Below are positions 4,538 through 37,143 of a stretch of DNA of 64,000 bases, piece after piece (within the stretch, counting starts at the first letter, position 1; each line of letters starts with the position of its first letter). The stretch lies in IMG/VR virus record IMGVR_UViG_3300044623_001092; one strand, 5' to 3'. The position numbers were made by a program, and so were the translations under genes. Source of the DNA: a virus. Under the pieces are notes generated by a model that saw only the letters and a list, made by a program, of their open reading frames with translations, was not told where the DNA came from and did no database searches.

Positions 4538-6736
4538 ATGTCATTTTCAGCATCAACTTGTTTAACTAACACAGGAACAACAACATTAAGTTCTACGTTA
4601 ACAATATACAGTAATCCAATTTCACCAACAAGTCCAGGTACTTATGTAACTACTGTACCAACGACAGATATAACAGGAGGCAACTGTCCTTATACTTTTG
4701 AAGTTCCTGATGGTACGACAATAATAAGATTATCAGACCCAATTAGTGGTTGTTATTGTGATATACCTGTTAGCGATAATAATATGTGTACAACTTGTGA
4801 TTTGAATTTCAATACTTTTACATCCCCATCAGTTGGTAATATTGTTGCTGGTGATATCACAGGAACTTGTGACGCAAGTGTGTCTAACTACTTAATTTAT
4901 TGGTACGATGTAACAGACCCATTAACACCTATTTTCAAATTCAGTTCAGGTAAAGGGTCAATGTTTACACCATACGATAATATACACCCATTAACGGGTA
5001 CATCATCAGTTTTAGCAACATCAGGAACTTATGATGCAATATTGGAAAAAATAGAACTTAATGGTGTTGTTTTTTCAAGAACAGGTGGAACGGGGACTGT
5101 TTTGGCTGATTTAGATTGTTTACCATCAATAATTAACGGTGACCCTTTTGTAATATCAGCATTAAATTGTAGTAATGGTGGTGATAGTTCTAATTTACCA
5201 CAATATGAACATAGATTCGCATATTCAGCAACTACAGGTGGTAATTTACCTACACCATTAAGCACTACATTTGAATTATCCGCAGGTACCAAATACTTCC
5301 CATGGAAATTTCAAGGAAATTCAGTACCCGATAAAATCAAATTAACATTGGTTGCTAACGCTTATGGTGACGTACCAATAATTGTAGATTATTGGGATGT
5401 TGGTGATTTACCAAGTAATAATTCAACTCCAACAATATTTCCTAAATCAGCGGACACTACAAGTTTTTTCAGTAAGATAACCGTTTTAAGTGCGTTTACA
5501 ATAAGTAATGGTGATAATATACTAATTGAGGTGACACCATCAACCGCAAATACACAAACAAGTTGGACATTTTATTGTGGATGTTTAGACGAAATTAATT
5601 GTTTTGATTGTACACCAAGTACAGGTATGACAAGTGGTGGTACAATTAGTTATCAATTCCCTATAAGCGCAACAACATTTACCGCATATACAGGAAGTTG
5701 TAACGCAATTACTATTCAATATAAGGTTTATCAAGATTGTAGTTATTCTAATTGGACCGCTAGTACCGAGTACCAATATATGAATGGTAATGGTATTGAA
5801 CCAAATAATTTAGTTAATAAGTCAGGAACTCTGTATGTTAACTCAGTATCCTGTGGTGTCGCATCAAGCCCGACTTCCTCTCAATCATGTTTAAATTACG
5901 GAGCACCAACCGATATAACATATGAAAAAATACCTGGTTTATTCACCATAACATCCAATAATTCAACAGTTATTAGTGACCATTATAATAGATATATAAC
6001 TGCACTCGTCCCGTATATATCAACATTTTCAGGTGATAATACTAATGTTGGGTATTATAGGCACTTTTACGTAGAATGGCCAACATCAACGGGAATCACT
6101 CCTTGTGGTGATGGTACCACATCAAAAACCCTTCGTATTCATCAATCATCAATTGTAAGTACAGGTATGACAGGTAGTGATTACTACATATCATTCACTC
6201 TACCAACTGTCACAAACGGAATAACATTTACAAGTTGTGATTTAAATTGTAACAACAATGTGAATCAAATGGTAGTAAATATTAACACATCTTCAACAGG
6301 AAGTACTGAAAATTATACAGGAACAACCAATGTTGGTTCTTCATACCAATATGTGTTTTATAACGTTTTTTATTTAACTAGTGGTTCTACGAGTTCAGAT
6401 ACACTCACTGTTGGTTCATTATTGACTTTAGAAAATACTCATAATAACACATATCCCGCATCAGGTGAAACACCAACATTAATACCATCACTTTCGGGTG
6501 TCACATGCCCTAACATATTAAATAATATGAGTATAAGTTCTCCAATTCGTTATATTAAATACACATCCTATTATACTTGTAAGTTAATCAATCCAACAAA
6601 TCCATTGTCAACTGATATTAATATTTTTTCAAATTACATACCTATGAATGGTAATCCCAATCCCACTATACAAACCTTAATTGCTCAATATATTGGTGGT
6701 GTACTGAATATAATTGATTCTGATTATTTCGTGTAA
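4538..6736 (+). CDS. Ser/Thr/Gly/Cys-rich beta-structured putative virion protein (732 aa)
   Basis: Long ORF in the plus-strand island with composition typical of fibre/appendage proteins; no family recognised. Confidence 0.7.
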   Translation: MSFSASTCLTNTGTTTLSSTLTIYSNPISPTSPGTYVTTVPTTDITGGNCPYTFEVPDGTTIIRLSDPISGCYCDIPVSDNNMCTTCDLNFNTFTSPSVGNIVAGDITGTCDASVSNYLIYWYDVTDPLTPIFKFSSGKGSMFTPYDNIHPLTGTSSVLATSGTYDAILEKIELNGVVFSRTGGTGTVLADLDCLPSIINGDPFVISALNCSNGGDSSNLPQYEHRFAYSATTGGNLPTPLSTTFELSAGTKYFPWKFQGNSVPDKIKLTLVANAYGDVPIIVDYWDVGDLPSNNSTPTIFPKSADTTSFFSKITVLSAFTISNGDNILIEVTPSTANTQTSWTFYCGCLDEINCFDCTPSTGMTSGGTISYQFPISATTFTAYTGSCNAITIQYKVYQDCSYSNWTASTEYQYMNGNGIEPNNLVNKSGTLYVNSVSCGVASSPTSSQSCLNYGAPTDITYEKIPGLFTITSNNSTVISDHYNRYITALVPYISTFSGDNTNVGYYRHFYVEWPTSTGITPCGDGTTSKTLRIHQSSIVSTGMTGSDYYISFTLPTVTNGITFTSCDLNCNNNVNQMVVNINTSSTGSTENYTGTTNVGSSYQYVFYNVFYLTSGSTSSDTLTVGSLLTLENTHNNTYPASGETPTLIPSLSGVTCPNILNNMSISSPIRYIKYTSYYTCKLINPTNPLSTDINIFSNYIPMNGNPNPTIQTLIAQYIGGVLNIIDSDYFV

Positions 6737-6787
6737 AAAAGTTCACTATAGGTTTAAATAATTTAAAAATCAACTATTTATTATTGA

Positions 6788-14722: not shown

Positions 14723-14737
14723 GGATATTTATATAAT

Positions 14738-14986
14738 ATGTTCGAAAATAGAGTATTTATAATAATTTCAACCGTTGAAATTCCATTTATTAATTTTGAA
14801 GAGATTTTATTCAAATCTTACAATGACCTTATTTTGTCGGTGAACAAAACTAAAACAATTTTAAAATGGGATGGTCCTACAACACCATCATTTTACGATA
14901 ATTTAAATACTAAGGAAGGTCCATATACTATTAGTGAGATTACTCAAATTTTGTCAACACCTGAATGGTACATAGAAAGTAATTAA
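14738..14986 (+). CDS. hypothetical protein (82 aa), possible fibre accessory/chaperone
   Basis: Preceded by TATTTATA (14726-14733) and follows the fibre gene; function inferred from position only. Confidence 0.65.
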   Translation: MFENRVFIIISTVEIPFINFEEILFKSYNDLILSVNKTKTILKWDGPTTPSFYDNLNTKEGPYTISEITQILSTPEWYIESN

Positions 14987-15011
14987 AAAAAAAGGGAAGT
15001 AATAACTTCCC
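14985..15011 (-). terminator. intrinsic terminator between convergent transcription units
   Basis: GGGAAGT-AATA-ACTTCCC hairpin with an A-run on the left (U-tract on minus strand). Confidence 0.7.
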
Positions 15012-15648: not shown

Positions 15649-18135
15649 TTAAAAATCAAATTTTATTACAAACTGTTGAATTCCGAGCCGTGGCGTAGGA
15701 GATTGTAGTTTAGATATAATCATAAGGTCGTCGTTCAAATCGTAAAGACCAATTTCAGTAATATATAGTTGATTACCATTTACCCAACCAGGATTTGAAC
15801 TTGCTTGGAACTCAGCATCACCCAAATTGATTTTATATCTCATTTCATATATTGTTGCTTGTACGTCAGTTTCAACAGTACCATAGAAGTAATATTCATC
15901 ACCAAAGTTTAGTTGGTGACCACTAAATCCAAGTGGTGTTAATTCAATATAATCCGATAAATCATATGATGGGGCGGCATCATATAAATCTTTACTAATA
16001 ACAAAAGTAGTACCTGTTAATCCATCTGCCGTAATATAACCATTAATCGTTGTCGCCGATAATATATCGGTATAATCAATAACTTTCCATTCAGTAGGGT
16101 CAGGTCTACCATCACCAATTACTTTTTGACAAATAATTTCAAATTTATCAGCAAAGAATCCTGTCGATAAATCGCATACATCAGGACAAAGTGTTGTACT
16201 CGTTGTTGTGTAAACACTTGTGGTTGTTGTTGTAATAACACTTGTTGTTGTTGTAGTCGTAGATGGTGAATACGATTTATAATTTAAACAATTAAATTCG
16301 GACCCAAATCTTACTGAGACATTTTGAGGTCCAATGTCTAAACAAGATAAATTAGGTCCTTGTATTTTAGTATAATAGTTACAATGTAACGAATTTGTAA
16401 AAGAATATTGATTACCCAATCTATAAGTAATGTATAAGTACTCAGTATTACCCGTTAAAATCCCCTCACTTGATTGATTTGATGGTCCACAAGTGTTTGG
16501 CGTAGTTAACCCTACTTTAGGAGCTGGTAACGTCCAATTTCGGTTTGATTTATATGATAACGATGCAATAATTTCTTCATCATCAATAATAACAATTTTA
16601 TGGTCAGGAAATACCTTACCAATTCTATTCGGTAAACCATTAATACTTGGGTTATCATCCCATAAATGATAATAACGAATACCAGGTGTGTTCATATCAA
16701 GGTTTTTCTTAGACTCAATATAGCTAGGCTGAAATAAGTCAAAATCCTCAAACCCTGGAGGGTCTACCCAAAATGTTTGTCCTTGACAACAATCAGGATT
16801 TTTATGCCACATCAATGATGGTAAACTAATTTTGAAGTTTCTTGCTTGTCCAACAGTATCTTCAGGTAATGTTGGGTCTAAAGGTTGTAACGCAAATTTT
16901 TCACCATAATAAAAATCAATTGTCTGATTGGTATAATGAATAATAGCAATTGCCTTTTGTTCTTCAGGTTGGACCTTAACAATCTCACTAAATGAATTAT
17001 AATAATATGTATCGGTCGTTTCAGCACTTAAAGTTGGGTCAACGTAGAATGTTTGACCTGAACTTGATTGATACCCTAAATATTCTTTAGTACCCACATA
17101 TTGTGCGGAACCAAACTTAGAAAAACCTTTAACAACATCACCATCTAATCCAGCTAAATCTTCTGACCAAGGAATATTCATATTCCATATCTTAACATCC
17201 AACTCATCAGTATCACATAACGATTCAAAATTAATAACATCAGTATTGTAATGATTTAATGGTGTAACACTATCATATAGGTTAGTCATATTAGGTGGGT
17301 AAATAATAGTTCTAGCGTAACACACACTTAATAAATCACCATAATCAGGTGTTGGTCTGTCTAACGTAATCTCGTTATTACAAACATCTAAAATTCTATA
17401 AGTTAAAATACCATAACAACTAAACATGCTCATACCACAATTAGGTATATCAACAGGTGTTGGTGTTGGGAATACCGTAGTTGTTGTTGTCGTAGTATCA
17501 CACGGTAAAGTTGTTGAGGTTGTCGTAGTTGGCGATAAGGTAGTTGTTGTTGTTGTTGTAGTCGATGTTGTACCACATCCACAATCATTTTTAGCTCGAC
17601 CATCAAAATAAATTGTGATTAAATCACCAGCCTGTGGTAATCTTGCTATATTTGTATTACAACCTGAATAAATAACAGTAATCACATCACTACCTGTTAA
17701 TGTTGACATATCAATCATGTAGTTAGAATTAATAACATGTTGATTATCCGTAAACGCACTCCAATATGTAAAGTTGTCTAACGTAATTCCTGTGAAGAAA
17801 CCTCTCGGTTCCGCTCTGTTATAGACAGGACTATCAATCGAATCCATATATGGTATACCATACGTATTACCTGTAAATCCTTTTACATAATACGGATATT
17901 TAATATTCTGTTTGTTTGATTGGGGAGCCCCACTTGAATTCTGAGCATTAAATGCTGGTTCCAATATCATCGTCTCTAATTGATTGTATGATGTTGGTAA
18001 GACATTATAAGAAACCTCACTATCACCAATTTGGAAATAAGATATGTTAAAATTACCTTGTGATAATTTTTCTCTCCCCGTATCAGTTAATCTACTGTTA
18101 ATTAACGCTGATGTATTTTTTAATATATAACTCAT
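15649..18135 (-). CDS. baseplate/tail-collar fibre-attachment protein with Thr-rich inserts
   Basis: N-terminal LTDTGREKLSQG....YFQIGD and C-terminal ITEIGLYD...LMIISKL..P resemble tail-collar fibre (DUF3751-like) halves; two poly-Thr tracts. Confidence 0.6.
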   Translation of the reverse strand: MSYILKNTSALINSRLTDTGREKLSQGNFNISYFQIGDSEVSYNVLPTSYNQLETMILEPAFNAQNSSGAPQSNKQNIKYPYYVKGFTGNTYGIPYMDSIDSPVYNRAEPRGFFTGITLDNFTYWSAFTDNQHVINSNYMIDMSTLTGSDVITVIYSGCNTNIARLPQAGDLITIYFDGRAKNDCGCGTTSTTTTTTTTLSPTTTTSTTLPCDTTTTTTTVFPTPTPVDIPNCGMSMFSCYGILTYRILDVCNNEITLDRPTPDYGDLLSVCYARTIIYPPNMTNLYDSVTPLNHYNTDVINFESLCDTDELDVKIWNMNIPWSEDLAGLDGDVVKGFSKFGSAQYVGTKEYLGYQSSSGQTFYVDPTLSAETTDTYYYNSFSEIVKVQPEEQKAIAIIHYTNQTIDFYYGEKFALQPLDPTLPEDTVGQARNFKISLPSLMWHKNPDCCQGQTFWVDPPGFEDFDLFQPSYIESKKNLDMNTPGIRYYHLWDDNPSINGLPNRIGKVFPDHKIVIIDDEEIIASLSYKSNRNWTLPAPKVGLTTPNTCGPSNQSSEGILTGNTEYLYITYRLGNQYSFTNSLHCNYYTKIQGPNLSCLDIGPQNVSVRFGSEFNCLNYKSYSPSTTTTTTSVITTTTTSVYTTTSTTLCPDVCDLSTGFFADKFEIICQKVIGDGRPDPTEWKVIDYTDILSATTINGYITADGLTGTTFVISKDLYDAAPSYDLSDYIELTPLGFSGHQLNFGDEYYFYGTVETDVQATIYEMRYKINLGDAEFQASSNPGWVNGNQLYITEIGLYDLNDDLMIISKLQSPTPRLGIQQFVIKFDF

Positions 18136-18155: not shown

Positions 18156-19628
18156 TTATTCATACAACGATTGATTAAGAACACTACAACAATTACAACC
18201 TGTAATGCTAGCGTTAGTAACAAACGAATTAGTGGTAGCAAAATTAGCACTACAACAACCACTACCAGTTGCCGTCACACCATATTTTAATGGCCCAAGA
18301 GGTCCATCACCCAAATCAACGTTATCATACTCATTTGGTAATGGTGTTGGTTCAGGTGTTTGACTTTCAAATAATGCTTGTGGTGGTGGTGGATTATTAC
18401 ATGTTAACAGATAATCAGTTATTAACTTAATACTATAAACATCCGTTGAATTAATAGTTAAGTCAGTATAGTTACGATTAAAATTCGTCTGATACTTCAA
18501 ATAATTAGTACAACCTGGTGTCGTATTAGCAACCGTTGTTACGACATCATTATCAACACTTGGTATTGTTAAACCATTTTTAATAATTTCTGTGGTATAC
18601 GATTTAGTTGCCGAATTAAGATAAGGCGTTTGAGTAAACATTCCAGAAAAATCCATATTAAACTTAATTGTTGTTCCATCATTAGGTAATGATGGTGTAA
18701 TATTTACAACATACGTATATTCGTAAGATGTACTAGATACCTGAACCGTAGAAAATATATTCATTGATATAGTATAAACCGTCATAGGTTCACTAGTGAA
18801 TATTACATTACCTGATTGAGATGATACAATTGTACCTTCACTATCCTTAATTTGAGGTGTAAAAGTCACATCAGGACATAAGTTATTGAATAATGGATTA
18901 CTCACCCATGTTGTTCCCCCATTTACCGAATATTGATATGGTGGTACACCTCCAAGACCTTGTATTGTTATTGAAGCATCACAACTTGTACATGATGGGT
19001 TATTTTTAGTTACCATTAATCTTAAATTACCAACATTAACACATTCACCTTCAGTTACAGTTACAGTACCTTGATTACCCAACATTAACCACCCACTTAA
19101 TGGTGGATAGGTAGGGTCGTTATTAATAACCGTTAAATTATTTACAGTATCAACCAACTCCCAACGATTATCAACGTTATCCCAAACGATGGTATATAAA
19201 ACATCATCTGAAATCCAACTTTGTTTACCATTCACAATCCCATTAGGATTAAAATAAATAGATAAATCAACCACACTATCACCTTTAAAATAATGAATAA
19301 CCATACAGAAATCATACGTAATAATTGGTGATGTTGTTGTTGTTGTAGTTGTTGTTGGGACAACAGGCCCTGTTAATACACAAGTAGTATTTGCAGTAAA
19401 ATCACCATAATAATCAACAATCGTTGCAGGATACGAACCTGCCGATAAATTATTAATTGCAAATGAACTATTACCATTTTCCCAAGTAATATTGTAAGGT
19501 GGTGTTCCACCTGTAACAATTAAAGTTGCAGTACCATTAGACGCATTCTGTCCACTAGGATTAGTTACTTGACACGCAACCCCAAGTGGGAATATTACTA
19601 TAGGTTGACACTCATTATTTTCAGGCAT
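18156..19628 (-). CDS. SprB-repeat putative virion protein with Thr tract
   Basis: NG.ATL.VTGGTPPYNITW.NG......NLSAGSY...IVD and GGVPPYQYSVNGG repeats; PTTTTTTTTSP. Confidence 0.75.
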   Translation of the reverse strand: MPENNECQPIVIFPLGVACQVTNPSGQNASNGTATLIVTGGTPPYNITWENGNSSFAINNLSAGSYPATIVDYYGDFTANTTCVLTGPVVPTTTTTTTTSPIITYDFCMVIHYFKGDSVVDLSIYFNPNGIVNGKQSWISDDVLYTIVWDNVDNRWELVDTVNNLTVINNDPTYPPLSGWLMLGNQGTVTVTEGECVNVGNLRLMVTKNNPSCTSCDASITIQGLGGVPPYQYSVNGGTTWVSNPLFNNLCPDVTFTPQIKDSEGTIVSSQSGNVIFTSEPMTVYTISMNIFSTVQVSSTSYEYTYVVNITPSLPNDGTTIKFNMDFSGMFTQTPYLNSATKSYTTEIIKNGLTIPSVDNDVVTTVANTTPGCTNYLKYQTNFNRNYTDLTINSTDVYSIKLITDYLLTCNNPPPPQALFESQTPEPTPLPNEYDNVDLGDGPLGPLKYGVTATGSGCCSANFATTNSFVTNASITGCNCCSVLNQSLYE

Positions 19629-24146: not shown

Positions 24147-27100
24147 TAATTACATAAAATATTAAAATTTATTCCGACATTAATTTTTAAATTAACCCCA
24201 TTATCATTTTCTGAACATATATTATTAAATATTATCACAGTGTCGTTACCTGTGAAATTATAATCATATCCATACACTTTCAATTCATCAAAAGCGGTTT
24301 CCAAAGCAATGTCCCACCCAGTGTTGGTTGTTGGGTAACTTAGATTTGGTATTGTTAAACCAACCCCTGTAAAGAACGGTATTTGTATAATCATAATATC
24401 ATTTATTCTGATATCAACAAACCAACTTGAATTCAATGAATTTATAACACAGTCATTTAACGTAAAACCATTTTCACTTAAATATTGGTTTAATAAGTAA
24501 CTTAAAACACCACTATATTGTTGTATTCTTGGACTAGTATCCCATGGATAAACAGGACATTCTGTTGATTGTACAGGACAATCAATAGGGAATATACTTG
24601 TTGTTAATGTACAAGGTTTACAAGGTACAGGAACAATTTCACAACCTCTTTGTCTTCTCCAAACAAATTTTTGTCTATGGAAAATTGAATTTTCATACTT
24701 AACACCTGTATTCCATATTGTAGATGCTGGTATCATTTGTTCTACCAATCTCACCCAATAACTACCCATACCATTAACGTATTCAATCATTTTTTGGTAT
24801 GAAAAATTATCATTAGAAACACCAATAGCATTTTGAGATTCTAAATACTTCCAAAATATCGAACCTAAAGTTGGATATCCACCTACTTTACTACCACTAA
24901 ACTGTCTATCCCTAACATTAATCATATTCAACCAAAACGTTTGTGCAAATTCGAAAAATGTTTGTGTTTTTGGTTGTGGATTTATTTCAGTCCAATCAAC
25001 CCCACCTTTACTTGGATAGATATTTTTAGGTATAACATTATAAAATTGTGTTGGTAATACAGTTGGTGACGGTACTGTTAAGAACTCAGGATTAACCGCA
25101 ACACCATAAGTAATCGCATTAGGACCAATAACAATATTACTAAAAAGACTAGTTAATGTTAAATCAGCAAAATTGTCAGGTACTTTTATTTCAGTACTAC
25201 CTGTAAATGACCCTGAACTAATAGTTACACCCGTTGATATTTCTAAATCAGGTCCTGAAACCTTACCTAAAGTATTTTTAAAATCTATTCTAATGTCAAA
25301 ATCTTTTGATACATTTGAAGTAACGTTAAATGTCGCTTTTACTGACCCAGGTTCATATGTCGCTGATAGATTTAAGGTAATAGTTGTTGATGGAATATAA
25401 TTCATTCCTTGATTCGGAATCGGATAATTATATTGTCTCGACATATACCAAATATCATATGCAATCCCTTGTCCAGGATTTAAAAATAAATCAACGTTTT
25501 TAACATTTAAAACTAATTTATCATTAGTTGTATAATATCTAGCATTATATTTACCATCCAAGTTACTTCTTAAACCAACTTCTTTATCAGTCCAACTTTT
25601 ATTATTATCAACATTAATTTTTAATTTATACCCAAGTTTCATAAATGGGAACTTACGGAATCTATCTAAATAATCTTGACCATAAGCATATGGTTTTAAT
25701 GAAGTTTGGAAACTAGGATTTGCCCCTGTAAAAACACTTGTGGTTAAATTAACTTGTTCAGGAGCCCTATGTTCAGGTGTTTGTTCAAACCACCCACTTC
25801 CCGATTGAAAGAAATAAGTTTCAGTGTCTTCGGGTGCTGACGGGTAACCAAAATCATCCATCGGATATTCATCTCTAGTTATATTAACGTCTTGTAATGA
25901 GTTTTGTGTTGTAAACCCTGTGTATGTATTCCCCATGATAGAGAATATATATGTGGAGTCCAAAACAGGTGTATCCTGTACATAAGTACCTCCTGATATT
26001 GACGTAAAATTACTATTGAACTGTTTTAAATTAATTTTTTGGTCGGCAAGATATACGTGTTCATTAAATTCAACTAATGCCTCAGGAGCACCTATTAACG
26101 ACATCAAAGTCTCAATTGATTTTCTAGTTCCTTTAGACTTAAACAAATAAGCAGAATTTAAGACTAAATTTCTATAATATTGGTAATTTAATTCATCGGG
26201 TGTTAATACCGAATTAATGCCACTAAATGCCGATTTTTGAGCGTTTTTATCGCCAAATACTGAACTCAATAATTCTTCGTTAGATATTGGGGATATATTT
26301 GTTTTCCAACCTAATGTTTGGGCCAAATTCTTTAATAATTGTGACGGTATATCATTCCCAACATTATAATTTACTGAGTTCACATACGCCAAAGCATCAA
26401 TGAATTTTTTAGTTTCATCAAAACTTCTACCATATACTTGTAATACTTTTTGAACTTTTTGACCTGTAGTATCAAACTCATTAAACGCACCCGTAGTTAA
26501 AAATCTTGAGATTAAGTCAGTTTTATATCCATCAAAACTAACACTAATCTCGTTAAGTTGACTTAAATAATTTGTGAATGACCCAGTGATAATATCAATG
26601 TTCCAAATAGAATTAATTGGCCATGTTACAGTTTTAAACCCTGTATAATACGTCCCATCTTCAGATGACATTGGTATATTAAAAGTTGCTGAATATTTTG
26701 GTGTGACATTTCTATTTAATAAGAAATTTTCCACTTGGTCCAACTTTTCATTAAATACTTTATTAACCTCAAAATCATTAGGTCTAACAACTAATGAGTC
26801 ATAACTAACACCATTCCCATTAAATGGATTACCTTCAACAACCAATGTTAATATCCCACTAACCAATGATTGTGTTGGTGTTATTCTTAGTAATGAATAA
26901 CCTTCACCATTAATGTATAAAGAATACTTGGCGTATTCCACCGTCATATTTCTTAATTGTGATACAGGTATTTCCCTTAATTCTAAATTTCTAGTTGCAT
27001 TAACCGTAAAATCAATACCGAATGGATTTCTAAGTTTAACGATGTTTAATTCGAAAGTTGTAACATCTTGAACACTATCGTAAACAATATTTAATGCCGT

Positions 27101-27505
27101 TGCACCTGTTGTATAATCAGGTGCATACACTGTAGATTCAATCGCACCAGGATAATAATTAATAATATTTTCAACCGAAGCCGAAATTCTCTTAACCATC
27201 GAACCATAGAGGTTGAAATTGGTAATTTGTGATAAATCAAAATTTGGATAAACTTTAAAATTATTCTCAAAAATTGCTTTAGATTGTTCAACGGTATCAA
27301 TCCCCAAACCTTGTAGGTTTATCGGGTTAGAAAATACCCCTGTCGTAAAGGTTCTATTAACTTTTTCAGTAACGGATTCTGTAAATTCAAAATTACCTTG
27401 CGTTAACCCACCTCCTTGCACTAATTGGAATCCAACCAAATCATCGGAAAAGGTTCCTGACCCTGCGGCACTTTGTGGTGGACAAGTATATTTTTTAATC
27501 GCCAT
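24146..27505 (-). CDS. baseplate wedge protein, gp7/P2 gpI-like
   Basis: PSQLLKNLAQTLGW...YYRNLVLNSAYLFKSKGTRKSIE.LM.LIG motif. Confidence 0.65.
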   Translation of the reverse strand: MAIKKYTCPPQSAAGSGTFSDDLVGFQLVQGGGLTQGNFEFTESVTEKVNRTFTTGVFSNPINLQGLGIDTVEQSKAIFENNFKVYPNFDLSQITNFNLYGSMVKRISASVENIINYYPGAIESTVYAPDYTTGATALNIVYDSVQDVTTFELNIVKLRNPFGIDFTVNATRNLELREIPVSQLRNMTVEYAKYSLYINGEGYSLLRITPTQSLVSGILTLVVEGNPFNGNGVSYDSLVVRPNDFEVNKVFNEKLDQVENFLLNRNVTPKYSATFNIPMSSEDGTYYTGFKTVTWPINSIWNIDIITGSFTNYLSQLNEISVSFDGYKTDLISRFLTTGAFNEFDTTGQKVQKVLQVYGRSFDETKKFIDALAYVNSVNYNVGNDIPSQLLKNLAQTLGWKTNISPISNEELLSSVFGDKNAQKSAFSGINSVLTPDELNYQYYRNLVLNSAYLFKSKGTRKSIETLMSLIGAPEALVEFNEHVYLADQKINLKQFNSNFTSISGGTYVQDTPVLDSTYIFSIMGNTYTGFTTQNSLQDVNITRDEYPMDDFGYPSAPEDTETYFFQSGSGWFEQTPEHRAPEQVNLTTSVFTGANPSFQTSLKPYAYGQDYLDRFRKFPFMKLGYKLKINVDNNKSWTDKEVGLRSNLDGKYNARYYTTNDKLVLNVKNVDLFLNPGQGIAYDIWYMSRQYNYPIPNQGMNYIPSTTITLNLSATYEPGSVKATFNVTSNVSKDFDIRIDFKNTLGKVSGPDLEISTGVTISSGSFTGSTEIKVPDNFADLTLTSLFSNIVIGPNAITYGVAVNPEFLTVPSPTVLPTQFYNVIPKNIYPSKGGVDWTEINPQPKTQTFFEFAQTFWLNMINVRDRQFSGSKVGGYPTLGSIFWKYLESQNAIGVSNDNFSYQKMIEYVNGMGSYWVRLVEQMIPASTIWNTGVKYENSIFHRQKFVWRRQRGCEIVPVPCKPCTLTTSIFPIDCPVQSTECPVYPWDTSPRIQQYSGVLSYLLNQYLSENGFTLNDCVINSLNSSWFVDIRINDIMIIQIPFFTGVGLTIPNLSYPTTNTGWDIALETAFDELKVYGYDYNFTGNDTVIIFNNICSENDNGVNLKINVGINFNILCN

Positions 27506-28413: not shown

Positions 28414-28438
28414 TCTATTATATTATCTTTTTTTTTAT

Positions 28439-29626
28439 TTAATAAGTTATGATATTGAAAAATCCGTAACCGTAATTAACTATTTCACCAATACTCCTAA
28501 CTTCATTCAATCTTTGTACTCTTTCGTAAGCACTAACTTTTCCTCTATCTATAAATACATCACTTTGTACTTCTGCATCATCAATAACATTTAATAATAC
28601 TTCATTTTTTGTTAAACCCGAACAAACCAACATATCTGACGTTATTCCCGATGATTGAACAACAAAAATTGTCGTACCATCAACATAATCATAGTAATCA
28701 ATATCATTAATTGTATAGGCGGTATACGTATTACCCAAATCAGGTCCCCAAAACGTACCTATATTACCTGAAGTACCCGTTATCGGAACACCTATTAAAA
28801 ATTTCTCAGCAAATAAATTAGCCTTTTTACCGTAGACTTCCAACCCATTAACATTTGACGTTGTATAACCCGTAATAATTATTGGTGATGATGAAACATC
28901 ATATACTTCTAAATCACAATTAGAGTCACCACTAAAAATATAATCATACATTATCGGAGTTCCCGACCAATTACCACCTGCAGGTACAAAATAAGCAGTA
29001 CCATTTGGATTTGTTATTGTCACATCCGAATATGGTACCGATATTTCTTTTTTTATAATATTGTACCCCCATGGACTCATACCTGACATACTTATCGTAT
29101 AGTCACCACTTGCAACGTATGTGTGGGTGTAATAATTAGGTGAAAAATTCGTTATTGTTTCCGTTATACCATCCCCCCAATCAACTTTATAATCTGAAAA
29201 TTGTAAGTAACTTAGAGATTGAATATCTGAGGTATTATAAAAATAATATTCATAAGGATTTAATGTGGTTGAGGAAAATAAAAAATTATTCACAACATCC
29301 TTTTGTAATACCGCCCCGTCAAACGTTGAATAATATCCAATGTCGATGCAAGTTTCACTTATAAAAATAGGGATAGTTAAACCCGTTAATAATGAATTAT
29401 ATTGTGTCGTACCCGTATTGTAAGTACCACCCGATAATACTTCAGTCATTGACGAATAAACAAATGTTTGACCCGTATAATTTTTTGTTACCGCACTTGT
29501 AAAAATATCACAACAAATTTCAACATCAAATTCCTCGTTATAAGAATTACCTGTATAGTCAATTAAAAATATATCACCATTAATTACTTCAGGAGATATT
29601 CTTACATTATATATTCTATCACTCAT
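28439..29626 (-). CDS. PKD-domain putative structural protein
   Basis: YKVDWGDG.TE........HTY..SGDYTISM PKD signature. Confidence 0.7.
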   Translation of the reverse strand: MSDRIYNVRISPEVINGDIFLIDYTGNSYNEEFDVEICCDIFTSAVTKNYTGQTFVYSSMTEVLSGGTYNTGTTQYNSLLTGLTIPIFISETCIDIGYYSTFDGAVLQKDVVNNFLFSSTTLNPYEYYFYNTSDIQSLSYLQFSDYKVDWGDGITETITNFSPNYYTHTYVASGDYTISMSGMSPWGYNIIKKEISVPYSDVTITNPNGTAYFVPAGGNWSGTPIMYDYIFSGDSNCDLEVYDVSSSPIIITGYTTSNVNGLEVYGKKANLFAEKFLIGVPITGTSGNIGTFWGPDLGNTYTAYTINDIDYYDYVDGTTIFVVQSSGITSDMLVCSGLTKNEVLLNVIDDAEVQSDVFIDRGKVSAYERVQRLNEVRSIGEIVNYGYGFFNIITY

Positions 29627-30444
29627 TATGGATTAACATATTCATACCATTTTATGGGAGTACCATTCCCGATTCGACTACCTAAGTAATTATAGATTTT
29701 GTAGGTTTTATCATTATAATCCAACACAACTTTATTATAAAAAAAGTTTTCATTGTTAAATAAAAATTTATTAGGTAACGATGATTGAGGTACCGTCATC
29801 ATTCTAACATACACACCTTGTTTAGCGTCAAAAAATTTAATTGACACATAAAATGTATCAAGATTTATTATTTTTCTTGATTTTAACCAATAATAGAAAA
29901 ACCCATCCATGTTAATGGAATTTTCACCAGGTGATGTTATATAGTCAAATAAATAATTAGGTTTTTTGATTATTACATTTTTTAAACTTATCGACATATC
30001 AACAGTTTCATATAAACCACTATATGATGGGATTATAACCGTAAAATAATTAGTTTGTTTAGTCCCGTCATTAGAATCGTAAAAATCCAATTTAAAAAAT
30101 GATTTTTTAAATGGTTTAGTTAAACCATAAATTTCTTCTTTAGTAAATCCTTCACTTATATAACTATTGGTCCAATCATTAATTGTTGACGCAGTAACGT
30201 TACTAGTTAACCCCGAATAAAAATTAAATTCGTAATTTAAAACTGTTTTATTACCTGATTTGTATGGTGAATGAGCAAATCTAATTACCTCAAAATCGTC
30301 AGGTATTCCCGACACTATTTTAATAACCTCATCTTGATATACTTCAATACTATCATCTCTACCCAAAAAATCCCACTGAATTTCAATAGGTATTGTTATA
30401 TTTTGATTAGTACCTGGTACCGTAAATTTATATTTATTATTCAC
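29626..30444 (-). CDS. hypothetical structural protein
   Basis: ORF in the baseplate operon; likely GTG start at 30444 overlapping the upstream stop (track start 30468). Confidence 0.7.
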   Translation of the reverse strand: MNNKYKFTVPGTNQNITIPIEIQWDFLGRDDSIEVYQDEVIKIVSGIPDDFEVIRFAHSPYKSGNKTVLNYEFNFYSGLTSNVTASTINDWTNSYISEGFTKEEIYGLTKPFKKSFFKLDFYDSNDGTKQTNYFTVIIPSYSGLYETVDMSISLKNVIIKKPNYLFDYITSPGENSINMDGFFYYWLKSRKIINLDTFYVSIKFFDAKQGVYVRMMTVPQSSLPNKFLFNNENFFYNKVVLDYNDKTYKIYNYLGSRIGNGTPIKWYEYVNP

Positions 30445-32248
30445 ACTCGTCAATTTTAGGTGCCGCAACTACGGAATTGTTTATTAACCCATAACTATAA
30501 TTACTTCCTTCACCAATTAATCTGAAAATAATATCAATATAAGGATAATGTGCATTGTTTAAAAATGGGTAATCAACACCAATATTATCATTATCAACAT
30601 ATCCGTAAGGGTATATATCTCTCCAACGAAATTTATTATCATTTTGTGAAAAATACGCATAATCAGGTATACCAACCACATTCATGGGATTACCCTCCTC
30701 AACATAATCAGAATAAGCCCTAATTTTTACAGGATAAAGTGGTTTATAGTAGTAACCCTTGCAATTATCTCCAAATGGGTTTGAGTTAGGGGACACTCCA
30801 ATATTAAAATAATACGGATTAAATCTAAATTTATGATACATATCCGAAATAACTCGTTCTTCTTGACTGTAATCATTCCATTCACAATAATCCCCATCAA
30901 ACACATCACCTTTAGAAGGTGCGTTAACATAAGTAAAAGGTTTACCAGGTATTCCATACGGTGTGGTATAAGAACCCATAGTAAAATTAGTATTGGAATC
31001 GGGATTAGAGTTTCTCCACCAAGTATTTGACGCAGTTGGATTAATATTCAACGGATGTGTATTGAATTCCCATCCTTGTTTTAACCCATAAAACCCTCCA
31101 CCAGATTTAGTTAAACCAAATGTCCAACCAAGATACCCTTTCCATATTATTGAATAATATAGTTCACTAATCGGTCGTTTATGATTATCAATTATAGTTG
31201 ACGTATCAATATCATCACTAAATGATGAAGTGTACACAGTGCTACCATTTTTAATAGAAATACGACTTTGTTTATTTGGTGATATATTACTACTTATAAG
31301 TTTTCTATTAGATTTAAAAATTTGTTGTTCAAATCCTGACTTACCTAAAACAATACTATCCTCATCAGTCAATATTTTATGTTGTCTGACATAATATGTC
31401 GACATAGTTTCACCACTGTTCGTTATGTCAATTATACGTTTAAATGTACCCGTTTGATTATTAGTAAAAGTCGTACCCGTAAAACCAACATTATATATAT
31501 TGAAAATATATTCATTAGTACCATAGAATGGGTCACCTAACGAGTAAACCTGAAAAGAATCTATACCATCATAATTAAAACTTAATTTAACAAATTCACC
31601 AACCGATAAACCATGAGCAACAGGACACCTAAAGGAAATTACAGGTTGAGATTGGTCACTACCTTGACTAACAACAAATGGTATTCCATCCGAGGATACC
31701 CAATTTAACCCAACATTTGCAATTTCATCAAAATATGACATTTTTTTATTATATAAATTATCATAAACATAACTCACATAAATCGACCAATTATATGTGT
31801 AAGCACTTTTGTTAATGAAATCTAAATGCTTAATATTACCACTATCGTTAGTCGTATAACCTGAGATATCATTATCAATCCTTACAAAATCAAACTCATA
31901 AAATTGTGGAAACCCACTAAATAATACAGTCGAACCACTAGTACATATTTTATACGCTAACGACTTTTCATTTTCATAATATAAACTTGATTTATATGGG
32001 TAATAATTTGTGGTTCCCATATACACATTATTAAACAATAAAGACATTTTACTAATCGGTCTAAATATAGTCGACGCTTGTCTTTCATCATCATATATCT
32101 GTTGTAAATCAATACTAATATTTCTATCAAATTCAACATTTTCTTTATATGTTTGTACTAAAGGTACTTTAAACAATAAATTTAAGTCAGGAGCTGATTT
32201 ATATCTCAAAGACCCTAATACAACTCTATATTCTATTCTTTCACTCAT
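30437..32248 (-). CDS. hypothetical structural protein (603 aa)
   Basis: Coupled ORF in the baseplate operon, aromatic and beta-rich. Confidence 0.7.
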   Translation of the reverse strand: MSERIEYRVVLGSLRYKSAPDLNLLFKVPLVQTYKENVEFDRNISIDLQQIYDDERQASTIFRPISKMSLLFNNVYMGTTNYYPYKSSLYYENEKSLAYKICTSGSTVLFSGFPQFYEFDFVRIDNDISGYTTNDSGNIKHLDFINKSAYTYNWSIYVSYVYDNLYNKKMSYFDEIANVGLNWVSSDGIPFVVSQGSDQSQPVISFRCPVAHGLSVGEFVKLSFNYDGIDSFQVYSLGDPFYGTNEYIFNIYNVGFTGTTFTNNQTGTFKRIIDITNSGETMSTYYVRQHKILTDEDSIVLGKSGFEQQIFKSNRKLISSNISPNKQSRISIKNGSTVYTSSFSDDIDTSTIIDNHKRPISELYYSIIWKGYLGWTFGLTKSGGGFYGLKQGWEFNTHPLNINPTASNTWWRNSNPDSNTNFTMGSYTTPYGIPGKPFTYVNAPSKGDVFDGDYCEWNDYSQEERVISDMYHKFRFNPYYFNIGVSPNSNPFGDNCKGYYYKPLYPVKIRAYSDYVEEGNPMNVVGIPDYAYFSQNDNKFRWRDIYPYGYVDNDNIGVDYPFLNNAHYPYIDIIFRLIGEGSNYSYGLINNSVVAAPKIDECE

Positions 32249-35200
32249 TAATATGTAATATCATCAAAATCAAACCAAGATTCTGCAAATTTATCATAAG
32301 CAGTTTTACCTTGTTTTAATCCAAAGTAAAAATGATATGGAGCACCTACCGTAATCGAATCAGGTGATGGTGAATTTCTATCCCAAGTGGTTATGTCAGC
32401 CGAAAGTTGTCCTGAACTATCAACCGAATAAATATACCCTTTAAAATAATTAGTTTGATTCAGGTTAGTTGTTCTAAAATATCTTGAACTTTTTTCTAAT
32501 CTATCCAACTCTTGATATTTGTGTTTAAAAAATACGTTACCAGTTGCAACACCGTCAGTGTCCCAATCATTATCTTGAGTACCAAAAACATTATCTTTGA
32601 ACCCATTTCTCTGTTTAATAGTCCATTGATAATACGGTACTTCTTGTGAAAATGTCGGAATATCCTCTAACCCACAATTATCTGAAACATTACCAACACC
32701 TGTATATATAATTCTCTTAGGAGTTAAATAATCTCTCGCCTGTGTATCAGAATTATAAAAAACACCAAAAACACTCCCTTTACCAAATTTAGTAAAAGAA
32801 AAAATCGAGTTTCCACTATAATAACCAGGTTCAAAAGGAACTATACCCATTTCAGAATTAATTGACAACATTTGAGCTAAATCACCATCAATACCTTGTT
32901 TAGGTCGACTAAAAAACGAGTTTATACCACCTATATTAGTACTATTAGCAATTCTCAACGTAATAAATAAACTAAGTATATCTTCAATACCATTATATGA
33001 TGTAGGGCCAAGTTTATCCATAACGTACCCTTTATATTTATTCGATAATGAAACCTCCTCTAAAAATTTTTGTTTTGGTCCTAAATCCATCATAGTTGTT
33101 GGAAACATTAAATTACGTTTGTTACCATTATTATTTCCCGAATCTTGACCAACAAATTCATTACTATATGAATATGGTGCGCTTCTATAATAATAATTCC
33201 CATTAGTACTATCAAAAACCATAGTATCAACACAATATTTAGAAAACGGTTGATTTTCATCATCAAAAAATGTTGTATTTTTGAATGGGAATGCGTATAA
33301 AGTACCATTAATCCAATTATTGGTAAACATGAATGAAAAGATTTCACGACAAACCCCATACATAATTGTTTGTCGTTTATACCATTCAGCTAAATAAAAG
33401 AAATCCTCAAACATACTTAAAATTGGTATTCTTACGAAAACATAACAACCCCCTTCCATAATCGGTTTTTTTCCAATTAATGAGGTAAAACAGGCACTAT
33501 CAGACTCTTTTATGGTCACTTGACCGTCAGGATTATCACCAACATAACAACCTAACGGAACCATCCCATCACATTGAAGACTAGCCAATACATCACTACC
33601 ACCTAAATCTTCTGTAACATCATCAAAATTAGAATCAAAACTAACTTGTGATAAATCAAATGTAGTTGTCTCACCACCTCCATTTGGGCTATAAATCATT
33701 AAGTTACCGTTTTCCATCAAAACACAATTATTTCCTGAATTATTTAATTCCGAGGTTGATGAAGGTAATCTATCCGACCTCATAATAATTTGACGACCAC
33801 TCGACCCCAAATTAAACACCATAGTTAAAGTTCCGTAAATTTTAGAATATAAACTACTAGTATCATAAGGATTTGTTGCTACTGGAGATGGTGGATAATT
33901 AAATACCACTTGTAATGATAAAACTGAACCACCTTCAACTTGTTCATTAGGGAAATAACCTCTATTATTACCAGTTGTTTGTGAATTAGTACTAGGAGAA
34001 TAATAATAACAACTAGACGGACCCAATTGAATATTCCATTCCTTAGCCATGTCATTATTCAAACTAACCGCAATACCTCCTGCAGATGGTATAGTTGTCG
34101 ATAGTGGAGGTGTTAATGATTGGTGTGTTTCATCTAAACTTGAGTAATATTTAGTCATTGTTGTTGTAAACGCACTAAATTGATTACCTGGTAAATATTG
34201 ATAAGAATCATAAAACAATGTCTGATTAGAATAGGTATCTACCGTAGAACTATTAGCGATTATTGCTGGTGAATTATGTTTAACATTACGTAATTTACCT
34301 TGTATTGGAATATTTAAGTTAAAATCTCCAACAACAATTGAGTTAGAATTACCAAACGATGAATGACCATATAACTTACTTAAATCATAACTACATTTTC
34401 TTTTACTAGTGTTTGGGTCAACCCCTCTAACCATAAAAACCAAACTTTGACCACTAAAAGATTTAAAACAACTAACAGGTGAAAAATTAAAGTTATCACT
34501 ACAATTTAAAAAATCACTATTAATATAAATCGAGTAAGCATAATTATTAATAAAACGAAAAGGTAATGAATTTGGTAAAGCCGTTGATGATAAAGTTAAG
34601 AAATCGTTAATTGTTTGAACCTTAATCACTTGGAAATATTCAATATCCATCGGATAGTTCGAATATGTAACATCTTCAGTAAATGCGGTAAACGTATATA
34701 ATGAATTAGGTGGTGAAATTGTACCACCATTATTAGGGTTAGCATAACTAACTTGTCTTGTAAATTGATTCACATTCGCAATTAATGTTGGTGTACCAAT
34801 TGTCGACCCTGTTATTGAGTTCGTTGAATATATATTAGTTGTCGCACCCGTTAAATTAATATCCATTGATTTTGTCGGGTCAGTAAATGTGTAAATTCCA
34901 CCAACTTCATATCTATCAATAAAATTTGGGTCAACAGGGACACAAATCACATTATCTAAATGCCAAGTAGTCCCCGAATTATTCAAATTAACATCAAAAG
35001 TAACTTTAATTTGGTTTACACCACCTCCAGGTGTTACTGTTGGATTAAAGTATTTTGCTTTAGTATTGAATAAGTTTAGTCTGTTTGATAATGTTAAACT
35101 TGAACTAAAAACGTATTTATCACCTACACCACTCAATTGATGTAATCCTTGAGATTTATTACCCTTACCCGCTAAAAGTTCCGAATAAATTACAGGTTGT

Positions 35201-37143
35201 GAACCACAGTTATATGCCGAGGTATCATAAAATCTACTAATTACACCCGAACTTCCTAAACTCTGTTGACTAGCATTTATTGAGTTTGTAGTAGCATTAG
35301 GTGGTGGTGTTAAATCAGTCGAAGCTTGCATACCTTTTTCACAGTTTTCACAATCAGGATAAGATAATAAACATACATGTATTCTAAATTCAGTACATAG
35401 ACTAACCATCGCTTTTGCGGCATCAAATATTCCTTGTGCAGAATCTTTTATGTCTTGACCTTTACTACCCGTACCAGGTATACTATCAATAATGGCTCCA
35501 ATAGCGTAAATAATTCCACCAATAACATATAAAACAACCGCAAGTATGGGAAATAAAATACACGCTATAAGTTTTAAAACGTGAAGTACCATTAATAAGG
35601 AGAAAATTGTGGGGAAAAATAATATCATGAATATCATGTACAATGTATACAGAAAATCAGGTTGGTGTTGACCATCATTAATCGGAAATTTAACATTATC
35701 AGATTCACATGTTGTATCAGTAATAAATTTAATACCAATAAATTTTTTCTTATTAACACCTTGTCTATATTGTGATATTAGACTTGAAACTGTATACACT
35801 TTGTTATACACCATTTCATAAAATTTATCTTTACAATCAATAGCATCAATTATCATTTGTTGACCAAAAGTAGTAGTATCATCCCCATAATCATCCCAAT
35901 TTACACTAAACGAATATGAACGCATCCTATCCGAGGCACCACCAGGAACAGGACCACTAGACGACCAACCATACTCTCTAATGTTTGGGACCAAATAATA
36001 CCCTCGTTTAACTGAGGCACTTAAAGATGGTGATTGATTCCACTTTACTTTGAACCTGTACTTACCTTTAGTTGGGACCCCAATACTAGGGTCGGTTGAT
36101 ATAACTTGTTGACCAAATTCATTTGTGGTTACATAATCCAAGTTCATTGGTACATTTACCATCCAAACACCATTCTCATCAATAACTTGACCACCATTAT
36201 CTAATTGGAAATTTTCTAATGAGGGTCTACCTTTACTATCTAAATTTATTGTTTGTCGAATAGCTTTAATTTGACCCGTTCCCGTAATTAACGAACATTG
36301 TTGACCCATTTTTCTTTTGGGTTTACATTTAGTACTAATTGATGATTCATCAATGTCTGAAATCATAGAACCCATATAAATCGCAACAGGATTTATTCGA
36401 ATATTAGCTTGTTCAGAAATATCAAAATCAGTCCTTGTTATACCAATACTACATAATTCAGGTTCACCCCATAATGGTTCAACTTCAACATTACGAGAGA
36501 ATGATAGTATCTGAGGTAATGAATTTAAGTTAGTTGAAGATTTAAAACTATTACCATCAACCATAGAAGATGTTGCCAAACCCATTGAAATTAAATCATT
36601 AGGTGTTAATGAAAATTCACCAATATCTGACAAATCCAAATCAACAAATAATGTTTGAGGTCCTGTAGGTACACCAAATATCATAAAATCACCACTATCA
36701 TTAGTCACAGTAGTATATCTATAATATTTGTCATAAACTTCTATTAATGTTGGGTCAGTTATAACATCTTCTCTATCAAAAAAAGTCCCTGTCGGAGTGT
36801 GTCCATTATATGATGGTGCATAAGGTAATAAATTATATCTATACCCATCTTCATTTTGGTCCGTTATTACTCTATAAGGGTATATCTCGGAAATAATCGG
36901 ATTATCCGCATCTTGTTCGGATAACGGTATAAATACAGAAACTCTGGCATTAGGTAACCCTAAACCATTATTCACACTAACCCTACCAATAACTACCCCA
37001 TAATCCGAGCATTGTCTTGTATAGATTTGGTCTTGTAATATTTTTAATGATAATATCTCAAGATATTCAAATTCTTGGTCAATTGTTACTTTTAATGATT
37101 TATCTACTCCAGGTGTTGTTCTTATTCTGTAAGAATTTGACAT
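32248..37143 (-). CDS. large baseplate-associated protein with N-terminal Ig-like (carboxypeptidase-regulatory-like) domain and internal hydrophobic hairpin
   Basis: GVVIGRV....GLGLPNARVSVF...TNDSGDFMIFGVP.G; about 55-aa hydrophobic segment near aa 498-555. Confidence 0.7.
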   Translation of the reverse strand: MSNSYRIRTTPGVDKSLKVTIDQEFEYLEILSLKILQDQIYTRQCSDYGVVIGRVSVNNGLGLPNARVSVFIPLSEQDADNPIISEIYPYRVITDQNEDGYRYNLLPYAPSYNGHTPTGTFFDREDVITDPTLIEVYDKYYRYTTVTNDSGDFMIFGVPTGPQTLFVDLDLSDIGEFSLTPNDLISMGLATSSMVDGNSFKSSTNLNSLPQILSFSRNVEVEPLWGEPELCSIGITRTDFDISEQANIRINPVAIYMGSMISDIDESSISTKCKPKRKMGQQCSLITGTGQIKAIRQTINLDSKGRPSLENFQLDNGGQVIDENGVWMVNVPMNLDYVTTNEFGQQVISTDPSIGVPTKGKYRFKVKWNQSPSLSASVKRGYYLVPNIREYGWSSSGPVPGGASDRMRSYSFSVNWDDYGDDTTTFGQQMIIDAIDCKDKFYEMVYNKVYTVSSLISQYRQGVNKKKFIGIKFITDTTCESDNVKFPINDGQHQPDFLYTLYMIFMILFFPTIFSLLMVLHVLKLIACILFPILAVVLYVIGGIIYAIGAIIDSIPGTGSKGQDIKDSAQGIFDAAKAMVSLCTEFRIHVCLLSYPDCENCEKGMQASTDLTPPPNATTNSINASQQSLGSSGVISRFYDTSAYNCGSQPVIYSELLAGKGNKSQGLHQLSGVGDKYVFSSSLTLSNRLNLFNTKAKYFNPTVTPGGGVNQIKVTFDVNLNNSGTTWHLDNVICVPVDPNFIDRYEVGGIYTFTDPTKSMDINLTGATTNIYSTNSITGSTIGTPTLIANVNQFTRQVSYANPNNGGTISPPNSLYTFTAFTEDVTYSNYPMDIEYFQVIKVQTINDFLTLSSTALPNSLPFRFINNYAYSIYINSDFLNCSDNFNFSPVSCFKSFSGQSLVFMVRGVDPNTSKRKCSYDLSKLYGHSSFGNSNSIVVGDFNLNIPIQGKLRNVKHNSPAIIANSSTVDTYSNQTLFYDSYQYLPGNQFSAFTTTMTKYYSSLDETHQSLTPPLSTTIPSAGGIAVSLNNDMAKEWNIQLGPSSCYYYSPSTNSQTTGNNRGYFPNEQVEGGSVLSLQVVFNYPPSPVATNPYDTSSLYSKIYGTLTMVFNLGSSGRQIIMRSDRLPSSTSELNNSGNNCVLMENGNLMIYSPNGGGETTTFDLSQVSFDSNFDDVTEDLGGSDVLASLQCDGMVPLGCYVGDNPDGQVTIKESDSACFTSLIGKKPIMEGGCYVFVRIPILSMFEDFFYLAEWYKRQTIMYGVCREIFSFMFTNNWINGTLYAFPFKNTTFFDDENQPFSKYCVDTMVFDSTNGNYYYRSAPYSYSNEFVGQDSGNNNGNKRNLMFPTTMMDLGPKQKFLEEVSLSNKYKGYVMDKLGPTSYNGIEDILSLFITLRIANSTNIGGINSFFSRPKQGIDGDLAQMLSINSEMGIVPFEPGYYSGNSIFSFTKFGKGSVFGVFYNSDTQARDYLTPKRIIYTGVGNVSDNCGLEDIPTFSQEVPYYQWTIKQRNGFKDNVFGTQDNDWDTDGVATGNVFFKHKYQELDRLEKSSRYFRTTNLNQTNYFKGYIYSVDSSGQLSADITTWDRNSPSPDSITVGAPYHFYFGLKQGKTAYDKFAESWFDFDDITY

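Follow-up and report, generated by a model that had tools for sequence, protein, structure and literature searches.

Why does one and the same tetrapeptide recur in structural proteins of different folds within a single phage? The question is raised by a 64,000-nt stretch of the IMG/VR virus record IMGVR_UViG_3300044623_001092 (the window). An initial annotation of this stretch noticed the motif [ST][GA]xT (Ser or Thr, Gly or Ala, any residue, Thr) in several structural proteins and took it for a glycosylation sequon, perhaps used by an encoded glycosyltransferase (GT). The answer that we tentatively prefer is that the motif is a lineage-specific, putative tag read in trans. It would probably be a sequon for O-glycosylation that an enzyme other than the encoded candidate, a protein of 329 amino acids (aa), recognises on folded modules.

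The excess is not a product of composition. Expected counts were taken from composition-preserving shuffles of each protein, the check proposed in the initial annotation, and the excess stands, also with shuffling inside blocks of 40, 20 or 10 residues; because the block shuffles change little, local composition is not its cause. Ten structural proteins pooled hold 70 motif sites versus 16.5 expected (z-score 12.9), and the outer baseplate and fibre proteins carry the motif 4 to 9 times above chance. When the residue classes of the motif are arranged in twelve orders, only [ST][GA].T and the overlapping T[GA].[ST] (z 6.9) stand out, and the ten non-overlapping orders give z values of at most 2.5. 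Pairwise terms predict 34 sites, fewer than the 70 observed; for the motif preceded by a hydrophobic residue, 45 sites are observed versus 6.1 expected. In an unbiased scan of gapped tripeptides, the top patterns are TG.T (30 versus 6.3) and SA.T (17 versus 2.3). No common DNA word lies behind the sites, whose codons vary, and a cause at the DNA level was rejected on that ground. The motif proteins are Thr-rich (10–15%), as a chance or compositional artefact of Thr-, Ser- and Gly-rich proteins would have it. Such an artefact is scarcely credible, since it is refuted by the global and local shuffles, the permutation controls and the pairwise expectations, and since a 2644-aa protein of the window with about 36% Thr is depleted in the motif.

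The excess centres on adhesin-type proteins and those of the distal baseplate and fibres, and is absent from the gp6-like, gp25-like and replication proteins (Table 1), which bears out the claim of enrichment in structural proteins. The copy numbers first given for the 732-aa protein (about 20) and the 395-aa protein (9) are exact, down to the tetrapeptides listed. The further claim of many copies in four other proteins holds for the 963- and 603-aa proteins, weakly for the 1119-aa protein and not for the 1631-aa protein in the window, though the family of the latter carries 2.4 times the expected number. The absence of the motif from NrdA is correct (0 versus 0.7 expected), yet uninformative on its own. 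A set of 18 window proteins, enzymes or inner virion components, holds 3 sites in all versus 7.7 expected. The distal baseplate and fibre block follows downstream of the gp6-like gene; its genes encode proteins of 1631, 603, 280, 395, 302, 1119, 963, 179, 329, 490, 828 and 207 aa. The 732-aa gene lies on the opposite strand and adjoins the genes of a 374-aa Thr/Pro-rich protein and of the 2644-aa protein, which is mucin-like.

The motif is specific at three of its four residues, with a hydroxyl at positions 1 and 4 and a small residue at position 2. Across 79 homologues of the 732-aa protein, position 4 favours Thr (4.4-fold), with Ser at 1.6-fold and Val, Ile and Asn at about onefold. Position 1 is Ser or Thr, Asp reaching 1.6-fold and N[GA].T 0.98-fold; position 2 is Gly or Ala, and Ser, Asn and Pro stay at about onefold ([ST]N.T, 0.91-fold). 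The most enriched form is SA.T (7.5-fold; TA.T, 2.9-fold), so position 2 appears to need a small residue rather than a Gly of positive phi. A hydrophobic residue precedes 62% of the sites against a background of 37%. The flanks beyond positions -1 to +3 are little conserved, and only Asn at +5 (2.7-fold) stands out. At the turn position of type I' and II' hairpins, Asn, Asp and Gly are interchangeable and Ala is disfavoured. The motif does not follow this rule of the two-residue Gly beta-hairpin turn, as seen from the values for N[GA].T, [ST]N.T, SA.T and TA.T.

The initial annotation also held that the motif spans unrelated folds and that shared ancestry does not explain it. This is upheld by BLASTP and hhalign for the 732, 395 and 603 families, but not for the 963- and 490-aa proteins, which have SprB repeats in common, and the 828 family has a weak profile match to the 963 family. 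The sole BLASTP link among the motif proteins joins 490 and 963. Comparison of profiles with hhalign links 963 with 490 (98%) and, weakly, 828 with 963 (83%, 74 columns) and 963 with 1119 (70%), while the 732, 395 and 603 families match neither each other nor any other family (probability below 1.5%). Against the SprB families 963 and 490, the 732 and 395 families reach at most 0.5%, and the 603 family is absent from the top hits (at most 0.2%). Likewise, the Pfam SprB model (PF13573) matches only the 963- and 490-aa proteins and gives no match in the 732-, 395-, 603-, 828-, 1119- and 1631-aa proteins. The sites of the 963- and 490-aa proteins lie in SprB-repeat contexts (xTGGTxPY, gqTGxT..nL and LSAGTY), as do at least 6 of the 10 conserved motif columns of the 963 family.

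All motif proteins could nevertheless consist of highly diverged Ig-like modules of the SprB or PKD type, each retaining two or three motif positions. Such a hidden common ancestry would suit the two SprB-repeat proteins, in each repeat of which about three positions bear the motif, a TGGxxPY-like element at the N-terminus of the 732-aa protein, the chain of beta-sandwiches in the model of that protein and the weak matches of the 963 family to 828 and 1119. It is unlikely in view of the hhalign probabilities of the 732, 395 and 603 families, both against the SprB families and against each other, and of the poor conservation around the sites. Outside the SprB-repeat proteins, detectable homology does not explain the pattern: as judged from these comparisons, many positions have acquired the motif, in at least three mutually unrelated families as well as in the weakly interlinked 828 and SprB families.

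Within families the sites are kept. The 395 family has at least 1885 metagenomic members. In 118 homologues of 56–99% identity, 8 of the 9 sites are kept in 66–100% of the sequences, with exchange of Ser and Thr at position 1 and of Gly and Ala at position 2, and with Thr nearly fixed at position 4. The 732 family comprises 231 cluster representatives, of which 79 full-length homologues of 25–54% identity were analysed. These contain 754 motif occurrences versus 171 expected. The motif occupies 22 alignment columns common to at least 10 sequences, and about 80% of the occurrences are in shared columns. Counts for the other families, taken from orthologues in 80 related IMG/VR loci that are not independent of each other, are given in Table 1. 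The gp6-like family has no motif site at all (0 versus 56 in 75 orthologues), which was not accepted as avoidance because three control permutations also give 0, or four with the overlapping T[GA].[ST].

Sites can also be lost. Five of the 79 homologues of the 732-aa protein have no site or a single one despite similar Thr and Gly content, and 2.3–2.4 sites are expected from composition in those with none. The 395 orthologue of a complete 322-kb relative (G002) keeps 3 of the 9 sites, the rest being lost by deletion or by non-conservative change, e.g. Gly to Ile. Because homologues of like composition have zero sites and sites are lost through non-conservative changes, the motif appears to be dispensable for the fold. 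In the relative of the zero-motif homologue P0173, no 395-like or gp6-like protein was found, its contig stopping before the baseplate block.

Table 1. Positions and motif counts of the proteins discussed. Positions refer to the window unless another locus is named. Orthologue counts come from the 80 related loci and are not independent of each other.
Feature	Position	Strand	Motif sites, observed vs expected	Sites in orthologues, observed vs expected (orthologues)	Conserved motif columns	Remarks
732-aa virion/fibre-type protein	4538..6736	+	20 vs 3.2 (z 9.9)			multi-beta-sandwich, Cys-rich
395-aa baseplate-module protein	28439..29626	-	9 vs 0.9 (z 8.9)	728 vs 94 (80)	8	weak PKD match
603-aa baseplate-module protein	30437..32248	-	5 vs 0.5	308 vs 49 (80)	5	
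828-aa protein	15649..18135	-	8 vs 2.0	208 vs 38	5	poly-Thr at residues 189-220 and 623-632
963-aa SprB-repeat protein	21255..24146	-	13 vs 3.7	700 vs 236	10	Pfam SprB E 3.1e-21; sites mostly repeat consensus
490-aa SprB-repeat protein	18156..19628	-	2 vs 1.6, not enriched			Pfam SprB E 1.5e-8; poly-Thr tract
1119-aa baseplate or fibre protein	24146..27505	-	5 vs 1.7, weak enrichment	250 vs 98; one control permutation scores equally high	3	
1631-aa protein downstream of gp6-like gene	32248..37143	-	5 vs 2.4, not significant in the window	487 vs 205 (79)	3	
280-aa protein	29626..30468	-	2 vs 0.2	53 vs 17	none	
302-aa protein				32 vs 27		
7-site cluster, residues 1083-1275 of 2098-aa protein (48919-55215)	51391..51969	-	whole protein 8 vs 2.4			
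329-aa candidate GT-A-like enzyme	19654..20643	-	0			HDAD motif
gp6-like inner baseplate wedge protein	37214..39052	-	0 vs 0.9			negative control; Pfam Baseplate_J
2644-aa mucin-like protein	6788-14722	+	7 vs 21, depleted			36.6% Thr
1350-aa orphan protein of LR756501.1	L089:24576-28625	-	24 vs 2.1 (z 14.7)			hydrophobic residue at -1
732-aa slot, L090 allele	L090:10001-12202		0			
732-aa slot, L092 allele	L092:10001-12241		10			neighbouring proteins enriched too
G002 adhesin-type proteins	271522-276423; 211563-215318 (G002)		enriched			combine DUF285, BspA-LRR, Fib_succ_major and PKD

The distribution of the motif among phages is narrow. The window is assigned to a large T4-like myophage. Its structural proteins recognised by Pfam are gp25-like, gp6/Baseplate_J-like, gp53-like and gp19-like, and other Pfam matches are NrdA, NrdB, a DnaB-type helicase, a RecA/UvsX-like protein, a gp32-like protein and a 5'-3' exonuclease; a PHROGs search gave no match for ten structural proteins. 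The nearest relatives of NrdA (42% identity) are from Cellulophaga and Tenacibaculum phages and the huge-phage record LR756502, and those of the gp6-like protein are from the huge-phage record LR756508 and Flavobacterium phage immuto. Based on these relatives and on the SprB repeats in two structural proteins, the host is probably a member of the Bacteroidota.

Motif excess was found neither in 24 virion proteins of T4 (including gp7-12, gp34-37 and Hoc) nor among 27 open reading frames (ORFs) around the gp6-like gene of LR756508. The same is true of 13 proteins encoded in immuto's baseplate and fibre block, though a fibre repeat of this phage, GDGSGLTGIT, contains the tetrapeptide. The structural modules of Enterococcus phiFL1A, Chryseobacterium MA9V-3, Clostridium phiCTP1 and Staphylococcus PMBT8 have no significant excess either (the largest is in phiCTP1 gp26, 9 versus 4.0). 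The excess is strong in hundreds of relatives. The 735-kb megaphage LR756501 encodes a 666-aa homologue of the 732-aa protein with 25% identity and 16 sites versus 2.7 expected. It also encodes a motif-rich 1350-aa orphan unrelated to that homologue, whose gene adjoins three collagen-repeat genes and the gene of the distant 732 homologue. Only about ten large proteins of G002 show the excess, among them those of the baseplate block; the sheath is mildly enriched (7 versus 2.9) and the major capsid protein is not (3 versus 1.1). The motif excess is thus not a general property of phage fibres and is limited to one phage lineage.

The adhesin-type proteins of G002, with their receptor-binding-type domains (Table 1), and the distal baseplate proteins are where one would look for direct binding or assembly. 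Exposed strand edges of hydroxyl, small and hydroxyl residues might bind host polysaccharide, or dock subunits or a fibre chaperone, and no covalent modification would be involved. This role is improbable, because the motif is also found in the highly conserved baseplate proteins 395 and 603, which are unlikely to touch variable receptors, and we know of no carbohydrate-binding motif of the form [ST][GA]xT.

The structural setting of the sites can be viewed on an AlphaFold2 (AF2) model of the 732-aa protein (predicted local distance difference test score, pLDDT, 90.3; predicted template modelling score 0.84), a chain of beta-sandwich domains with some helices; the model of the 395-aa protein is too poor for use (pLDDT 51). 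When the 732-aa model was compared with PDB and BFVD by Foldseek, the matches were generic only (multi-beta-sandwich, FN3, CUB, PA14 and Big2-type tail-fibre). By DSSP, 9 of the 20 sites are in strands, 9 in coil and 2 in helices, with residues 1 to 3 of the motif about half strand and half coil and, at each of these positions, helical at one or two sites. Coil follows directly (+4) at 17 of the 20 sites, and strands restart 2–4 residues on. In the model, therefore, the motif tends to stand where a strand closes or a turn opens, and its context is not uniform.

This setting brings in the reading that ranks close behind the trans-read tag and is nearly as likely, namely that the motif is a purely structural one. 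A small residue between two hydroxyls would form a beta-bulge or a strand-end cap in Thr-, Ser- and Gly-rich beta-sandwiches. No reader would be involved, and the restriction to one lineage would only reflect its protein families and their composition. The location at the C-terminal ends of strands with coil at +4 fits this well, as do the hydrophobic residue at -1 and the frequently hydrophobic x. The sites are conserved as much as or more than average columns, mostly in columns shared by the 732 family, and new sites arise at a low rate; the tetrapeptide is also part of known structural repeats, those of SprB and of the immuto fibre. However, beta-rich virion proteins of T4, immuto and other phages have no excess of the motif, and its secondary-structure context is mixed. 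Ala is accepted where a turn would need Gly, Asn and Asp are unused, and homologues keep the fold family with zero sites. Moreover, a structural motif requires several unrelated families, at least 732, 395 and 603, to converge on one tetrapeptide.

The sole candidate in the window for the encoded GT is the 329-aa ORF. It has an N-terminal VFVSA strand and an HDAD (DxD) motif, and no Pfam, PDB-sequence or profile match was found for it. Weak leads are a protein-atlas neighbour with HPAT in 10% of its members and one weak Nucleotid_trans match. The protein is about 70% conserved across the clade, and full-length homologues of 32–38% identity occur in 77 cultured phages, whose hosts include Enterococcus, Lactobacillus, Staphylococcus, Lactococcus, Clostridium and Chryseobacterium. 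In all six cultured phages inspected (L084, L085, L086, L087, L093 and L094), the gene of the homologue directly follows that of a poly-Thr protein, which is either a tail-tube or major tail protein with poly-Thr or a small protein of 34–45% Thr. The capsid and portal proteins of these phages often end in poly-Thr too. Four of the six are phiFL1A, MA9V-3, phiCTP1 and PMBT8, without significant motif excess; near the homologue genes of PLE3 and Bacchae, raw motif counts are 0–2 per protein. In the window, poly-Thr tracts occur in the 828-, 490-, 374- and 2644-aa proteins around the 329-aa gene and were not found in the 732-, 395-, 603- and 963-aa proteins.

The proposal that the encoded GT modifies the motif is not sustained, since the homologues of the 329-aa protein pair with poly-Thr proteins that lack motif excess, and the motif-rich LR756501 is without such a homologue. 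The latter case agrees in part with a situation that the initial annotation had named as speaking against its own proposal, an equal presence of the motif in a phage lacking the GT. On this evidence the 329-aa candidate enzyme is not what reads the tetrapeptide. Because of the pairing in the six phages, the poly-Thr neighbours in the window and the absence of a homologue from LR756501, its substrates are most likely the poly-Thr tracts of the 828-, 490-, 374- and 2644-aa proteins, and the 329-aa family looks like a widespread poly-Thr-directed virion modification module.

A reader other than the 329-aa protein is nevertheless what we tentatively favour, because the same tetrapeptide has been fixed repeatedly in unrelated families and only in this phage lineage, and because the motif requires two hydroxyls and a small residue, seems dispensable for the fold and is limited to outward-facing proteins. 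The proposed course of events is as follows. In a clade of large phages, which probably infect Bacteroidota, the sequence hydrophobic-[Ser/Thr]-[Gly/Ala]-x-Thr would be a short linear tag under selection. It would be carried by the baseplate, fibre and adhesin proteins that face outward, at turns and where beta-strands end. The common cause would be a trans-acting reader common to these phages, most likely a modifying enzyme of the cytoplasm with one of the motif's two hydroxyls as its target. O-glycosylation by another of the clade's GTs would be the most plausible modification, and the enzyme would act on folded or folding beta-modules, as POFUT and POGLUT act on EGF and TSR domains. In its fullest form, which we hold with still more reserve, the claim is that hydrophobic-[ST]-[GA]-x-T may be the true sequon of an undescribed cytoplasmic modification system, most likely of O-glycosylation. 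Such a system would be common to a large clade of freshwater and marine Bacteroidota jumbo phages and megaphages, would place its marks at fixed positions of baseplate and fibre proteins that face outward, and would exist alongside a distinct poly-Thr system run by the 329-aa enzyme.

Several observations weigh against a trans-read tag. Genetic linkage of a phage GT to the motif substrates was found neither for the 329-aa family nor for generic GT1 and GT2 enzymes. Genes of GT2 and GT1 type occur alike in motif-positive (G002, G003 and LR756501) and motif-negative phages (immuto and LR756508), so that gene content neither supports nor refutes another GT as the reader, and in LR756501 no GT gene adjoins the motif-rich genes. 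Lineage-private sites in the 732 family are only 1.26 times the expected number (z 2.9), with most of the excess in conserved columns, which implies that most of it is old and maintained. Part of the motif signal comes from the 963- and 490-aa proteins and is plain SprB-repeat consensus. A role in packing would fit the preceding hydrophobic residue and the x, which is often hydrophobic. The phage's enzymes do not clearly avoid the motif (about 4 sites versus about 4 expected in a per-protein tally).

Known modification systems offer partial parallels. A literature search on the motif itself returned nothing relevant, and a search on phage virion glycosylation returned general context only. Sequons of O-glycosylation read by POFUT1/2 and POGLUT1 occupy fixed places of EGF and TSR repeats and are read on the folded domain. 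Like these, the motif is short and sits at fixed, conserved positions in small folded beta-rich modules; unlike it, the EGF and TSR sequons are framed by Cys and served by eukaryotic enzymes of the endoplasmic reticulum. The Vp54 protein of chlorovirus PBCV-1 carries a virus-specific N-glycan sequon, (A/G)-N-T-x-T, which resembles the proposed tag as a non-canonical sequon ending in x-Thr that is served by virus-encoded machinery, and differs from it in having an Asn acceptor and a single capsid protein as substrate. The pattern [AG]NT.T is rare in the window proteins (3 versus 0.8 expected). The general O-glycosylation sequon of Bacteroidota, D-[ST]-[AILVMT], belongs to the likely host phylum and shares with the proposed tag a Ser/Thr acceptor before a small or aliphatic residue, but the system is periplasmic. 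In the motif proteins D[ST][AILVMT] is not enriched (26 versus 31.3 expected, z -1.0), nor is N-x-S/T. The SprB repeat of Bacteroidota gliding adhesins matches the motif through its consensus (xTGGTxPY and LSAGTY) and covers the 963- and 490-aa members. Unlike these, the 732, 395 and 603 families have neither a Pfam match nor an hhalign relation to it, and the 828 family has no Pfam match and a weak link to 963.

Mycobacteriophage virions are glycosylated by phage-encoded GTs (Freeman et al. 2023, PMC10527164, cited in PMC12619734). In the account cited there, phage enzymes decorate outward-facing virion proteins in the cytoplasm, and the poly-Thr proteins of the window together with the adjoining 329-aa candidate match this arrangement. 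The acceptors in that account are the C-terminal Ser/Thr-rich tails of capsid and tail-tube subunits, whereas the present tetrapeptide lies inside baseplate and fibre proteins, at conserved positions.

Some features of individual proteins may be added. The 732 family has 11 invariant or nearly invariant cysteines, and several more are conserved in most members, which is unusual for a protein assembled in the cytoplasm; so many conserved cysteines point to disulfides or metal sites once the virion is mature. The 732-aa gene occupies a slot that behaves like an exchangeable cassette. The alleles in this slot at two related loci (L090 and L092) are about 31% identical to that of the window, and the flanking genes are 63–76% identical (66–76% for the L090 allele, the one with no motif sites). 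In the 2098-aa protein, 7 of the 8 motif sites lie within 190 residues and the rest of the protein is motif-poor, which suggests that it holds a single motif-bearing module. The 2644-aa protein has globular parts spaced by long stalks of the (P-T-N-T) type, a weak match to the proprotein-convertase P-domain and a LamG-like C-terminus.

The analysis sets apart two things that had been conflated, as the 329-aa family goes with poly-Thr tails on tail-tube and capsid proteins and not with [ST][GA]xT. If the motif is only structural, it still helps to recognise a class of modules in phage fibres and baseplates, as a signature of unusual sharpness. If it is read by an enzyme, it would be the first sequon-type code of protein modification for tailed phages, present in hundreds of abundant uncultured large phages. 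Such a code would bear on virion shielding or host adhesion, and it would provide a simple sequence rule by which outward-facing orphan proteins of phages could be predicted.

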